From positions 76,816-140,815 of the forward strand of contig CAWENY010000013.1 in assembly GCA_963810475.1 (NCBI GenBank): a DNA stretch of 64,000 bases, in the 5' to 3' direction. The translations under genes and the position numbers were made by a program. The first letter of the stretch is position 1. Each line of letters begins with the position of its first letter. This document shows positions 55,784 through 58,055 of this stretch, piece after piece. Source of the stretch: an uncultured beta proteobacterium (GTDB lineage: Bacteria; Pseudomonadota; Gammaproteobacteria; Burkholderiales; SG8-39). The notes beneath the pieces are model-generated. The model saw nothing but the letters and a program-made list of their open reading frames with translations. It ran no database searches and had not been told where the DNA came from.

Positions 55784-56661
55784 TATTTCAGCACGGACTT
55801 CAGCGTCTTGCCCATCTCGGCCGGGTTGCGCGTCACCTTGATGCCGCACGCCTCCATCACGGCGAGCTTCTCCTGCGCCGTGCCCTTGCCGCCGGAAATA
55901 ATCGCGCCGGCGTGGCCCATGCGCTTGCCCGGCGGGGCGGTAATGCCGGCGATGAACCCCACCACCGGCTTCTTCATGTGGTTCTTGACCCATTGGGCGG
56001 CGATCTCCTCGTCCGAGCCGCCGATCTCGCCCACCATGATCACCGCCTCGGTCTGCGGGTCGTCGTTGAACATCTTCATCACGTCGATGTGCTTGAGCCC
56101 GTTGACCGGGTCGCCGCCGATACCGACACAGCTCGACTGGCCCAGGCCCAGCTCCGTCAGCTGCCCCACCGCCTCGTAGGTCAGCGTGCCCGAGCGCGAC
56201 ACCACGCCGATCGGTCCTCGCTTATGGATGTGCCCCGGCATGATGCCGATCTTGATCTCGTCCGGCGTGATCACGCCCGGGCAGTTCGGGCCGACCAGCA
56301 GCGTGCGCTTGCCTTTCATGCGGTGCTTGGTGCGGATCATGTCGCGCACCGGGATACCCTCGGTGATGCAGATCACGAGGTCGAGGTCCGCGTCCACCGC
56401 CTCGTCGATCGCCGCGGCCGCGAACGGCGGCGGCACGTAGATCACCGACACGTTGGCGCCGGTCTGCGCCTTCGCGTCCTTCACCGTACCGAAGATCGGA
56501 ATGCCCTCGAAATTCTCGCCCGCCTTCTTCGGATTCACGCCGGCGACGAAGCAGGCCTTGCCGTTGGCATAGGCCCGGCTGGTCTGCGTGTGGAACATGC
56601 CCGTCTTGCCGGTGATGCCCTGCGTCATCACCCGCGTGTTCTTGTCGATGAGGATGCTCAT
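55783..56661 (-). CDS. sucD: succinate--CoA ligase (ADP-forming) alpha subunit
   Basis: [37 protein letters not shown].. 292 aa. Confidence 0.95.
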
Positions 56662-58055
56662 GATTGCTTTGACCCCCTGACAAGGGGGTCGTGAGCCGAA
56701 GGCGAGCGGGGGGTTTGATTTTCGGCGATGGGTTGGGTCCGGAAAAAGGCAACCCCCCGCTCGCCTCGCTCGCTTCCCCCCTTGTCAGGGGGGCAAAGAA
56801 CTGCGCTCATTTCTTTTTTCCCTTCTTTGCCTTCTTCTTCGATCACCTTCTTTTTCGAAAACGACCTTTTTCTTTGCCACAGGCTTTGCCTTCTTCTTCC
56901 GATCGCGGCCACGACCTTCTTCGCCGCATCCGCCATGTTGTCGGCCGAGATGATCGGCAGGCCGGAGTCCTTGAGGATTTTCTTGCCGAGGTCCTCGTTG
57001 GTGCCCTTCATGCGCACCACGAGCGGCACGGAGAGCTTCACCTCGCGCGCCGCGGCCACCACGCCGGTGGCGATGGTGTCGCACTTCATGATGCCGCCGA
57101 AGATGTTGACCAGGATCGCCTTGGTCCGCTTGTTCGACAGCATGATCTTGAACGCCGCGGTCACCCGCTCGGCGGTGGCGCTGCCGCCGACGTCGAGGAA
57201 GTTGGCCGGCGAGCCGCCGAACAGCTTGATGGTGTCCATCGTCGCCATGGCGAGGCCGGCGCCGTTCACCATGCAGGCGATGTTGCCGTCGAGCGAGATG
57301 TAATTCAGCTCGTACTTCGAGGCCTCGACCTCGAACGGGTCTTCCTCATCCAGGTCGCGCAGCGCGGCGATGTCGGGATGGCGGAAAAGCGCGTTGTCGT
57401 CGAAGTTGAGCTTCGAATCCAGGGCGATCACCCGGCCGTCACCCGACAGGATCAGCGGATTGATCTCGGCCAGAGAGGCATCGGTTTCATCGAAGCACTT
57501 GTACAGCGCCTTGAAGATGGCGCGGCCCTGCGCCACCGATCCCTGCGGGATGCCGATGGCGAGCGCGATCTCGTCCGCGTCGGCGTCGCTCAGGCCCTGC
57601 ACCGGGTCGATGAATACCTTGTGGATCTTCTGCGGCGTCTTGGCGGCGACTTCCTCGATGTCCATGCCGCCTTCGGAGGAGGCCATCAGCGCCACCTTCT
57701 GCGTGCCGCGGTCGACCACCATGCCGACGTAGAGCTCCTTCTTGATGTCGGCGCCCTCTTCGATCAGCAGCCGGCGCACTTTCTGGCCCTGCGGGCCGGT
57801 CTGATGGGTCACCAGATTCATGCCCAGAATTTTCTTCGACAGGTTGCGAACTTCATCGATGGACTTCGCAACCTTGACCCCGCCGCCCTTGCCACGGCCG
57901 CCGGCGTGGATCTGCGCTTTCACTACCCACACCTTGCCGCCGAGCTTCTTCGCCGCCGCCACCGCCTCGTCGACGCTGAATGCCGGGAAGCCGCGCGGCG
58001 TGGCCATGCCGAATTGGCGGAAAATTTCCTTGCCCTGGTACTCGTGGATTTTCAT
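56658..58055 (-). CDS. sucC: succinate--CoA ligase beta subunit; homology ends near 56900, after which the ORF reads on through a repeat tract and the palindromic element
   Basis: [30 protein letters not shown].. runs to ..[18 protein letters not shown], about 385 aa, the normal SucC length. It starts at ATG 58053..58055. No stop follows until the TGA overlapping the sucD ATG (ATGA, 56658..56661). Confidence 0.85.
56662..56804. mobile_element. 143-bp MITE/REP-like palindromic element inserted at the sucD start
   Basis: The arms are about 54 nt. Both ends contain CTTTG-N-CCCCCTGACAAGGGGG and the inner 16-mer AGGCGAGCGGGGGGTT as inverted repeats around a 35-nt centre. The element is flanked by direct repeats GCTCAT (= ATGAGC on the coding strand) at 56656..56661 and 56805..56810. 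Confidence 0.65.
56825..56904. repeat. direct repeat CTTTGCCTTCTTCTTC(C)GATC, two copies about 59 bp apart, in an AT-richer pyrimidine-rich tract
   Basis: Copy 1 is at 56825..56844 and copy 2 at 56884..56904. They are identical except for one extra C. Copy 2 covers the expected 3' end of sucC. Confidence 0.6.

Follow-up and report, generated by a model that had tools for sequence, protein, structure and literature searches.

The junction between sucC and sucD, which encode the beta and alpha subunits of succinyl-CoA synthetase, holds a 143-bp imperfect palindrome in the 64-kb stretch of DNA that was analysed here (hereafter the window). We think it likely that this palindrome is a copy of a lineage-specific, multi-copy, non-autonomous repeat which entered an ATGA stop/start overlap of the two genes, and that it carries a short "relay ORF" by which their translational coupling would be preserved. 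ATGA overlaps of four bases are the commonest junction of co-directional prokaryotic genes, and it is thought that they keep the subunits produced in equal amounts. The features of the junction are listed below by their positions in the window.

55783..56661, minus strand: sucD, succinyl-CoA synthetase alpha subunit, 292 aa (Pfam CoA_binding, Ligase_CoA and Succ_CoA_lig)
56656..56661, minus strand: downstream copy of ATGAGC; its ATG (56661..56659) is the sucD start and its TGA (56660..56658) the stop of the relay ORF
56658..56810, minus strand: relay ORF, 50 codons plus TGA, in ATGA overlap with the sucC stop at its start and with the sucD start at its end
56662..56804, minus strand: imperfect palindromic element, 143 bp, supported by inverted repeats, fold, empty-site comparison and family profile
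56673..56688, unstranded: 3′-arm terminal mini-palindrome (gene strand: CCCCC-TTGTCA-GGGGG)
56700..56766, unstranded: inner pair of inverted arms (56700-56722, 56744-56766) and the central loop between them
56776..56793, unstranded: 5′-arm terminal mini-palindrome (gene strand: CCCCCC-TGACAA-GGGGGG)
56805..56810, minus strand: upstream copy of ATGAGC; its TGA (56809..56807) is the sucC stop in relatives (alignments A1 and A2)
56810..56808, minus strand: ATG start of the relay ORF, within the upstream ATGAGC
56807..58055, minus strand: sucC, succinyl-CoA synthetase beta subunit, starting MKIHEYQ, its end set at the TGA of relatives
56811..56903, minus strand: coding region of the Lys-rich C-terminal tail of SucC, out of frame in the window through 1-nt indels

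The first-pass annotation had described direct GCTCAT repeats (ATGAGC on the gene strand) around a long hairpin with inverted arms, a repeated 16-mer and a 35-nt centre, and all of this was recovered. The hexamers at 56656-56661 and 56805-56810 are separated by 143 bp; the outer inverted arms (56667-56688 and 56777-56798) are 22 nt long and 95% complementary, and the inner arms contain the perfect 16-mer AGGCGAGCGGGGGGTT at 56700-56715 and 56751-56766, 35 nt apart. The minus-strand RNA of the element is predicted to fold into one long hairpin with a minimum free energy of -96.7 kcal/mol, which was matched by none of 200 dinucleotide-preserving shuffles (-61.7 +/- 4.5; z = -7.76), and the G-run of its 3′ arm (AGGGGG) lies 11 nt ahead of the sucD ATG. 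With its terminal inverted repeats, small size and lack of transposase coding, the element resembles a MITE. It matches the nhmmer profile of its family at E = 4e-29, and this profile of 48 members found one copy only in the 64-kb window; searches with a 22-mer (up to 3 mismatches) and the 16-mer (up to 2 mismatches) gave no second copy there either, in agreement with the earlier impression. The element is not an assembly artefact, a possibility raised at first, because the same insertion at sucCD is found in at least six independent assemblies (L001-L006).

A comparison of the sucC-sucD junction in close relatives, which had been proposed as a check, revealed both states of the site. In the empty sites (L007 and L008-L011) the gene order is unchanged and the junction reads ...AAGAAGAAAAAATGAGCATCCTC, a plain ATGA overlap, while filled sites read ...AAATGAGC[143 bp]ATGAGCATCCTC; the single ATGAGC of the empty sites L007 and L008 thus corresponds to two copies flanking the element when the site is filled. 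The empty sites and the target-site duplication, 4, 5 or 6 bp in length, fit a MITE, and the proposal of a non-autonomous insertion at the sucD start, with ATGAGC duplicated, is upheld by these sites and by the multiple copies found in relatives. At the level of sequence, the ancestral junction was a 4-nt ATGA stop/start overlap, a copy of the element inserted into it and duplicated ATGA(GC), and thereafter the upstream copy provides the TGA stop of sucC and the downstream copy the ATG of sucD. This revises the idea that sucD was separated from a ribosome-binding site of its own, as the ancestral state was an overlap instead. The element occupies the junction in three diverged lineages (with sucC third-codon divergence up to 25%), and remnants of 31 and 19 nt survive there in two further lineages. 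In a distance matrix of eight taxa, empty sites adjoin carriers in two clades, and to explain this nesting the element must have been deleted precisely twice or have inserted at this site repeatedly.

Soil Burkholderiales MAGs harbour the multi-copy family to which the element belongs. A genome scan found copies with 74-80% identity over ~130-150 nt at other loci, in Burkholderiales/Betaproteobacteria MAGs, and the copy-number check in relatives, likewise proposed beforehand, placed family copies on at least five contigs of a single Burkholderiales MAG (SMAG_U1790). More than 50 distinct full-length copies lie at loci other than sucCD. The metagenome scan for the family yielded at least 120 stretches, and the 134 matches listed divide into 85 single half-units and 49 full doublets; the element itself is a REPIN/MITE-style doublet of two inverted units of ~45 nt. 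In the 48-member alignment A3 the columns of the 5′-arm mini-palindrome are invariant, and conservation of the long hairpin is seen in the pairing of 98% of alignment cells. The 6-15 nt at the outer ends, which separate the conserved hairpins from the duplication, differ among copies both in sequence and in length. Covariation was considered as evidence of an RNA function and set aside: the stems are near-invariant and the only covarying positions are two in the centre of the mini-palindromes, between arms, so that covariation cannot tell an RNA role from a DNA role.

Full copies are strongly biased towards stop/start overlaps. [AGT]TGA stands on both flanks in 29 of 53 distinct full copies (~55%, against 11.5% of random positions; p = 3e-14), and a stricter flank motif in 22 of the 53 (2.1% background; p = 4e-23). 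NTGA is duplicated at about 30 other family loci; the copy at L088, for instance, has GTGAGC on each flank, and that at L054 duplicates ACGT. The operon pairs hosting copies include, as verified by Pfam, E1alpha/E1beta, NuoH/NuoI, CydA/CydB, RNase III/Era and DctQ, and, as read from translations, HisZ/PurA, AceE/AceF, LivG/LivF and TctB/TctA, with TctA confirmed by Pfam. Either the family targets (A/G)TGA overlaps or it survives selection only there; the bias could thus come from survivorship instead of target choice.

These copies bear directly on whether the hairpin could be a regulatory or stabilising RNA that evolved in place at sucC-sucD and was never mobile. Such an RNA would account for the high stability of the structure and for its conservation at the sucCD site over several species. 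However, homologous copies at dozens of unrelated loci contradict it, and the empty sites hold a clean ATGA overlap. Furthermore, an Rfam scan of 55500-58500 (E <= 1) matched no family, returning generic hairpins only (miRNA precursors, g2) far below gathering scores, and the element is not an intrinsic terminator because no T-run follows either terminal hairpin. We therefore hold an origin in place to be extremely improbable, and return to an inserted repeat.

The duplication of ATGA has a second consequence, visible in the sequence, namely the creation of the relay ORF. The upstream ATGAGC had been taken for the stranded start of sucD, and its ATG does open an ORF, of 50 codons, although the same hexamer also holds the TGA that stops sucC in relatives. 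The ORF crosses the hairpin and terminates on the downstream ATGA. The same arrangement recurs throughout the family: in 24 of 27 scored junction copies an ORF runs from the upstream ATG through the hairpin and ends exactly on the downstream NTGA, the distance from ATG to ATG being 2 mod 3 in those 24 (p = 3e-9 against an expectation of 1/3), and 12 further copies checked by hand, including those of the window, L003 and L005, have the same architecture. The ATG-to-ATG distances range from 128 to 200 nt in 3-nt steps. The frame used differs between family copies, and with it the relay peptide, so that conservation concerns the phase and the open frame and not the peptide sequence. Even the sucCD remnants L016 and L014 retain relay ORFs, which are 12 and 8 codons long. 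An intact relay ORF is absent from L162, L183, L218 and L245, from the v2 allele of sucCD (L012/L004, 141 nt), where a stop lies in the loop, and from L001 and L002 (148 nt). As the last two are long-read assemblies, their length may reflect a homopolymer error.

It is from this conservation of phase only that we infer translation of the relay ORF, which probably hands ribosomes from sucC to sucD. Ribosomes ending sucC would reinitiate at the ATG of the relay ORF and open up the hairpin in the course of translating it; at the ATGA of sucD they would terminate and then reinitiate on sucD, so that coupling of the subunit genes would outlast an insertion of 149 nt by means of two successive termination-reinitiation events. 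In experiments, spacers of ~20 nt nearly abolish termination-reinitiation coupling (PMC10666635). The first-pass annotation had suggested that sucD expression may depend on translational coupling, and the junction points to this in the more specific form of a putative relay. Another route to sucD, the unmasking of the SD-like G-run of the 3′ arm by a ribosome that pauses at the sucC stop, was tried in a constrained ViennaRNA fold and rejected: the G-run had an unpaired probability of 0.01, and since it stays paired we prefer translation of the relay ORF to the unmasking model.

A related explanation accepts the insertion as proposed and takes the relay ORF as irrelevant, with sucD initiating independently, from the SD-like AGGGGG or weak purine motifs of the linker, or after the RNA is simply unfolded by ribosomes translating into the 5′ arm. 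AGGGGG does lie 5-17 nt ahead of the downstream start in the family (11 nt here), GAGG or GGAG is often seen in copies with longer linkers, and the v2 allele L012/L004 persists in nature despite the stop in its loop. That said, the G-run has an unpaired probability of 0.01-0.09 in model folds with and without a ribosome at the sucC stop, and independent initiation leaves unexplained both the excess of 2-mod-3 distances and the exact termination on ATGA in the 24 of 27 copies. We judge independent initiation unlikely, and favour coupling through the relay ORF.

The 3′ end of sucC in the window calls for separate comment. The purine-rich stretch ahead of the upstream ATGAGC had been regarded as a Shine-Dalgarno-like leader, but it actually codes for a conserved Lys-rich tail of SucC (...KKAKKGKKK*) that is present in 120 of the 120 best homologues; the SucC homologues carry Pfam ATP-grasp_2 and Ligase_CoA. 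The stop codon of sucC in relatives (AAA-TGA) falls within the upstream ATGAGC, and SucC as translated from L001 and L002 finishes with ...KKGKKK* at that TGA (56809..56807). The window differs from its closest relatives by three 1-nt indels, at ~56902 (-1), ~56863 (+1) and ~56842 (+1), and solely through these is its sucC frame open to the TGA at 56660-56658, giving a read-through ORF of 478 aa. An overlap of the downstream ATGA with the stop of the read-through sucC, as noted at first, is hence present in the window, but its frame depends on the three indels. They are probably consensus or assembly errors, because another indel in the same assembly, at ~55219, disrupts an adjoining conserved ORF of 646 aa. 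An exact protein look-up of the read-through SucC (P0014) gave no record, and the SucD read from ATG 56661..56659 is identical to the protein of six other contigs.

Taken at face value, the read-through would mean that the element is translated as a true C-terminal extension of SucC, comparable to the in-frame insertions of Rickettsia palindromic elements (RPEs). The open frame to 56658 would fit, as would one other database protein that passes the stop (P0011, 467 aa) and the family copies in prepilin leader regions (L142, L148 and L165), which are in frame with the gene. We nevertheless find this very unlikely: Illumina-based relatives with an identical element stop at the upstream TGA and have 415-aa proteins with the Lys-rich tail, and the window needs its three indels, in an assembly that has the conserved ORF next door disrupted by a further one. 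RPEs (Ogata et al. 2000), as outlined in PMC3184786, are likewise translatable palindromes, sometimes in frame within coding sequence; they are fused into proteins, whereas at sucCD and most other sites the element forms a separate mini-ORF between two ATGA overlaps.

The closest precedent for such a mini-ORF is offered by the MIRUs (Supply et al. 1997), portrayed in the MIRU passages of PMC12548453 and PMC3184786 as mobile-looking short repeats that lie in operons and contain an ORF; this ORF is coupled at -4 nt (ATGA-type) spacing to the genes on either side, which is thought to permit insertion with little effect on expression. The present family shares with MIRUs, as they are presented there, an intercistronic position in operons, tetranucleotide direct repeats at filled sites, and an internal ORF overlapping the flanking stop and start (24 of 27 scored copies and 12 by hand, with the window among them). 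By the same accounts it is unlike them in its host, soil Burkholderiales instead of Mycobacterium, and in its layout, a single long near-perfect palindrome (about -97 kcal/mol) with no tandem array instead of tandem units of 40-100 bp; nor is any sequence relationship with MIRUs evident. Judged by host and layout, it is not a MIRU, which is defined by a mycobacterial host, tandem VNTR and homology. Flanking of DUF559 genes is not reported in the MIRU passages of these two sources, whereas single half-units do flank DUF559 here.

Correia elements duplicate TA and have promoter, IHF and RNase III features, whereas the target of the present family is NTGA at gene overlaps. The family is also unlike Correia-type MITEs in that no parent IS with the same ends and a DDE transposase was found among the loci examined, and unlike classical MITEs in its variable outer ends. 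What it shares with gene-cotranscribed MITEs (Correia/NEMIS, ERIC; PMC3184786) is a length of 100-170 bp, inverted arms, an mRNA hairpin, target-site duplication and a non-autonomous nature.

In several respects the family is closer to the REP/REPIN/RAYT system (PMC3116915, PMC3337134): it has palindromic single units, hairpin doublets that seem to be the mobile form and a small gene enclosed by a pair of inverted units, and its copies are numerous and persist vertically at orthologous sites. Unlike the extragenic REPs and REPINs, its doublets lie within operons at stop/start overlaps with target duplication, and carry a phase-conserved ORF. The flanked gene also differs, being DUF559 (PF04480, E = 1e-27 to 1e-30), a PD-(D/E)XK nuclease of 120 aa, in every case seen, and not a RAYT (Y1 HUH transposase). 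We counted 27 DUF559 ORFs in loci selected by the repeat, almost every one of them having a unit on either side, and three of three DUF559 homologues picked by protein similarity alone were likewise flanked by inverted units. Among the loci examined, no recognised transposase and no other recurring gene family lies between matching inverted ends. The best candidate for the mobiliser is this small Vsr-like nuclease, with its genes bracketed by single units of the repeat in inverted orientation.

HUH-type insertion of single strands does not normally make target duplications. This matters for the alternative that the family is an ordinary REPIN moved by a RAYT encoded elsewhere, with the DUF559 genes as bystanders or preferred landing sites, to which the architecture of single units, inverted doublets and a small gene flanked by units would be suited. 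The duplications of NTGA, and of ACGT at L054, are atypical for such a mechanism, and DUF559 stands between inverted units every time (27 ORFs; all three protein-chosen homologues). REP superfamilies are moreover defined by a GTAG or CGTC tetranucleotide at one REP end (PMC3733652), and when alignment A3 is inspected neither tag is seen in the unit AACCCCCCGCTCGCCTTCGGCTCACGACCCCCTTGTCAGGGGGTC, whichever orientation is read, a further difference from REP/REPIN. For the loci examined, all this makes a RAYT-driven origin improbable in our view, and a DUF559 nuclease stays the candidate that we prefer. GTAG was seen in a class-2 repeat that is unrelated to the family.

A literature search, including the terms DUF559 and translational coupling, found no description of this repeat family. 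More tentatively, and with rather less than even confidence, we suggest that the family belongs to an undescribed multi-phylum class of palindromes sharing the core C5-6 TGACAA G5-6 ... G6TT / AAC6 ... C5 TTGTCA G5, which DUF559 nucleases may maintain or mobilise in a RAYT-like manner, and whose doublet form may have adapted to ATGA overlaps with a phase-locked relay ORF.

Dozens of operon junctions have received a very stable hairpin of 130-200 nt from this family, such as those of sucCD, nuoHI, cydAB, aceEF, E1alpha/E1beta and rnc/era, and so offers a natural, replicated test of whether a throw-away ORF can relay coupling through strong structure. Two ATGA overlaps chained by a mini-ORF would also be a ready design for synthetic operons. 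By analogy, the principle known from MIRUs would extend outside mycobacteria, and the flanking of DUF559 genes by single units suggests which enzyme may serve a REP-like system lacking a RAYT, as well as what a widespread domain of unknown function may do.

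The 143-bp palindromic element lies between sucC and sucD and is laid out as follows.

Features of the sucC/sucD junction in the window
sucC: start 58055, minus strand
sucD: 56661 to 55783, minus strand
Palindromic element: 56662-56804, 143 bp, between sucC and sucD
Bounding hexamer GCTCAT: 56656-56661 and 56805-56810, ATGAGC on the gene strand
Outer inverted arms: 56667-56688 and 56777-56798, 22 nt, 95% complementary
Inner arms: 56700-56722 and 56744-56766, including the perfect 16-mer AGGCGAGCGGGGGGTT

The two copies of AGGCGAGCGGGGGGTT are separated by 35 nt; hexamers, arms and 16-mer were re-checked, and everything the first-pass annotation had read from the element's sequence was correct. 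As it had anticipated, the gene-strand RNA folds into a single long hairpin of -96.7 kcal/mol in the model (shuffled controls, -61.7 +/- 4.5 kcal/mol; z = -7.76). Covariation adds little, as the stems are nearly invariant and co-varying positions in the two arms are limited to the two at the centre of the terminal mini-palindromes. No T-run was found after the element hairpins, and thus polarity through intrinsic termination is not expected. No Rfam family matches the element. The window has no second copy, in agreement with the first reading.

The junction was compared among relatives sharing the gene order glpK, DUF2889, sucC, sucD and 646-aa ORF. Empty sites read ...AAGAAGAAAAAATGAGCATCCTC, a plain ATGA overlap (loci L007, L008-L011), and filled sites occur in three sequence variants: the first in the window, L002, L003 and L005, the second in L012, L004 and L006, and the third in L013. 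Remnants are also present, of 31 nt with ATGAGC at both ends in L016 and of 19 nt in L014 and L015. In the alignment, filled minus empty equals exactly the element plus one additional ATGAGC, which bears out the proposed insertion with an ATGAGC duplication at the sucD start. By sucC distances the carriers form two clades, each adjoined by an empty-site relative, and the remnant lineages fall outside both. These sequences would fit either an old insertion that was later removed by precise deletions between the 6-bp repeats or repeated insertion into the same sucC/sucD site.

Six other contigs encode an identical SucD with the element at the same place, and there sucC does not read through; it ends in a Lys-rich tail, and its stop is the TGA that the upstream ATGAGC contains (AAA-TGA-GC). 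The upstream hexamer is present as first described; its purine-rich "SD-like leader" is therefore coding sequence of the SucC tail. Similarly, the downstream ATGA does overlap the stop of the 478-aa read-through sucC ORF in the window, but sucC of the relatives ends at the upstream TGA. Against the nearest relatives (98-99.7% identical), 1-nt indels at about 56902 (-1), 56863 (+1) and 56842 (+1) push the tail out of frame and beyond its stop, and downstream of sucD the conserved 646-aa ORF is broken by a further 1-nt insertion, at about 55219, into ORFs 53677-55488 and 54722-55618. To judge from these comparisons, the indels are probably assembly consensus errors; since the relatives include long-read-style assemblies with similar defects (sucC is broken in L001), we take the read-through ORF as a probable product of such errors. 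Single-base differences from relatives were seen at about 55218-55220, 55766, 56842, 56863 and 56902. A typical SucC terminates near ...AAKKVVAA; the C-terminal Lys-rich tail of this lineage is about 25-35 aa long (window 56811-56903, minus strand; homologues P0002-P0120) and is present in all of the best 120 SucC homologues, one of them annotated as a Burkholderiales bacterium.

The element belongs to a repeat family. A terminal-motif scan with one genome per species gave at least 118 stretches, which BLASTN sorted into two classes. Class 1, the element's own family, consists of 120-150 nt copies 74-80% identical to it, hosted among the matches listed by Burkholderiales and Betaproteobacteria MAGs; copies occupy other loci in relatives, including at least five contigs of the Burkholderiales MAG SMAG_U1790, and an assembly with an empty sucC/sucD site carries a unit at another locus (L107). 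The repeat of class 2 is longer and distinct, having only the terminal hairpin core in common with the element, and is abundant in MAGs of other phyla among the matches listed. Its centre is the core TTGCCCCCCTGACAAGGGGGG followed by GGTAGGGGGGGTTGC (L018-L135, e.g., L018, L033, L072, L098), its consensus aaaaggcgatgcgcccccgccgggctgagggggttttgctttttc...ctttttcaacaaccc, and many copies per genome occur in Nitrospinota (L020, L032, L087), Binatia and unclassified MAGs; Zixibacteria, Ignavibacteria and Peribacteria have other variants. When metagenomes were scanned for an inner motif specific to class 1, at least 120 stretches with at least 134 matches were obtained. They take three forms: complete doublets resembling the element of the window (49 among the matches listed), single half-units of about 45 nt, and inverted half-unit pairs 380-520 bp apart with a small gene between them. 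Some junction copies have one or two extra tandem 3' half-units after the doublet (L168, L244, L252, L217). A second palindromic repeat, AATCAGGGACAGACCACGTGGTCTGTCCCTGATT, is a recurrent landing site or neighbour (L054:1909-2154, L150, L156, L208); the L054 copy of the element interrupts this repeat at its midpoint and is accompanied by an ACGT duplication.

Doublets are concentrated in stop/start overlaps. With a same-strand [AGT]TGA at most 26 nt before the 5' hairpin and at most 50 nt after the 3' hairpin, 29 of the 53 distinct full-length doublets among the matches listed carried the motif on both sides, against 11.5% at random positions in the same loci (p = 3e-14); for a stricter motif the figures were 22/53 and 2.1% (p = 4e-23, among the matches listed). 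ATGAGC flanks both ends in the window, L054, L141, L181, L221, L234 and L013, and other typical pairs are GTGAGC/GTGAGC (L088) and ATGAGC/ATGAAC. TGA is preceded by A, or else by G on both sides, as would be predicted for a duplicated (A/G)TGA overlap and not for insertion into a spacer. The ORFs on either side are genuine termini of genes paired in operons: E1alpha/E1beta, NuoH/NuoI, CydA/CydB, RNase III/Era, DctQ/DctM, TctB/TctA, HisZ/PurA, AceE/AceF, LivG/LivF, DppB/C, DppD/F and PrkA/YeaH. Pfam, applied to ten ORF fragments (E1alpha, E1beta, NuoH, NuoI, CydA, CydB, RNase III, Era, DctQ, TctA), showed upstream products reaching the last profile positions and downstream products beginning at positions 1-3; the remaining partners were named from translations. 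Because ACGT flanks one copy in an ordinary intergenic palindrome (L054:1909-2154) and position 5 of the upstream flank copy is nearly always G, the target duplication, within 4-6 bp, may be 4 bp with G as the first base of the element. Among the matches listed, the two intrinsic orientations relative to the genes are unequally represented, by about 25 and about 6 copies. Single units suggest an association with stop codons as well: the stop TGA of an adjacent gene is often formed by their outer end or lies directly against it (...TGACCCCC; L259:1440-1500 and 1900-1960; L257:1410-1430), on both sides where neighbours converge.

In its passage on MIRUs, a translational-coupling review describes insertion at start codons and an internal ORF coupled with a spacing of -4 nt (PMC12548453, citing Supply et al., 1997; also PMC3184786), and for this reason the reading phase was tested. 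In the window, a relay ORF of 50 codons begins at ATG 56810, spans the entire hairpin and stops at TGA 56660..56658 overlapping the sucD ATG, so that sucC, the mini-ORF and sucD are chained through two ATGA overlaps. Among the matches listed, 24 of 27 automatically scored junction copies had a start-to-start distance of 2 mod 3 and a frame open to exactly the downstream NTGA (p = 3e-9 against 1/3), and 12 further copies checked by hand behaved likewise. The distances (128, 131, 134, 137, 140, 143, 146, 149, 155, 167, 176, 182 and 200 nt) differ throughout by multiples of three, with or without an extra half-unit, and the extended copies L168 and L244 keep the frame at 176 and 182 nt. Even the remnants retain the arrangement, as ATGA, 12 codons, ATGA in L016 and GTGA, 8 codons, ATGA in L014. 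Frames over the conserved hairpins differ among copies (CPPDKGG...DPLVRGS vs. APLTRGE...RPPCQGV), and at the sequence level the conserved feature is openness and phase, not the peptide. Exceptions are the variant 2 allele at sucCD (141 nt), whose frame stops in the loop, L162, L183, L218 and L245, together with L001 and L002 (148 nt), long-read assemblies with a one-G difference inside a G-run. Three prepilin-like genes carry the element in frame, after the start codon and ahead of the cleavage motif ...GFTLIE (L142:3478-3585, L165:1619-1738, L148:1338-1456), extending the cleavable leader; these copies would be translated as a leader-peptide extension that is later removed.

We infer a termination-reinitiation relay from sucC to sucD, in which ribosomes terminating on the sucC TGA would reinitiate at the overlapping ATG, translate the relay ORF while melting the hairpin, stop at the second ATGA and start again on sucD. 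This reading is favored because termination-reinitiation normally fails at a spacer of about 20 nt (PMC10666635), because the sole SD-like motif (AGGGGG, 11 nt upstream of the sucD ATG) remains paired in model folds, even those that place a ribosome at the sucC stop codon, and because the phase constraint has no other explanation.

The gene between inverted half-units encodes a protein of about 120 aa with Pfam DUF559 (E = 1e-27 to 1e-30), whose nearest solved structure is 3hrl, an "endonuclease-like protein." At least 27 DUF559 ORFs occur in the repeat-scan loci, nearly all with a unit at each end, one of them in a MAG also holding several doublets (L021). As an unbiased check, three homologues were chosen only by protein similarity and contig size; all three, in different neighbourhoods, had inverted units on both sides and a stop codon abutting the right unit. 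Likewise, in one class-2 genome a DUF559 gene is followed by a class-2 unit (L027). We regard this putative nuclease, from its genomic context, as a candidate partner of the repeat family. Small DUF559 (Vsr-like nuclease) genes consistently lie inside two inverted 45-nt half-units in many different neighbourhoods (L151, L170, L203, L227, L246, L249, L021:6158-6675, L256, L257, L259). The contigs of many homologues are very short, which would be expected if flanking repeats break assemblies. A literature search returned no paper linking DUF559 to repeats and none printing these repeat sequences.

The finding of the first-pass annotation is real and its core interpretation right. Like a MIRU, the element lies between cistrons, carries a relay ORF and has a 4-nt direct repeat; it is built in the same way as REPINs and shares most criteria of a MITE. 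Judged by the features that define them, none of these families includes it. The DUF559 gene with its flanking units mirrors the REP/REPIN/RAYT layout, except that a PD-(D/E)XK nuclease replaces the Y1 transposase. The interest lies in a rule at the level of the family, whose copies land at ATGA overlaps while preserving a phase-locked relay ORF, and the candidate DUF559 partner adds to it.
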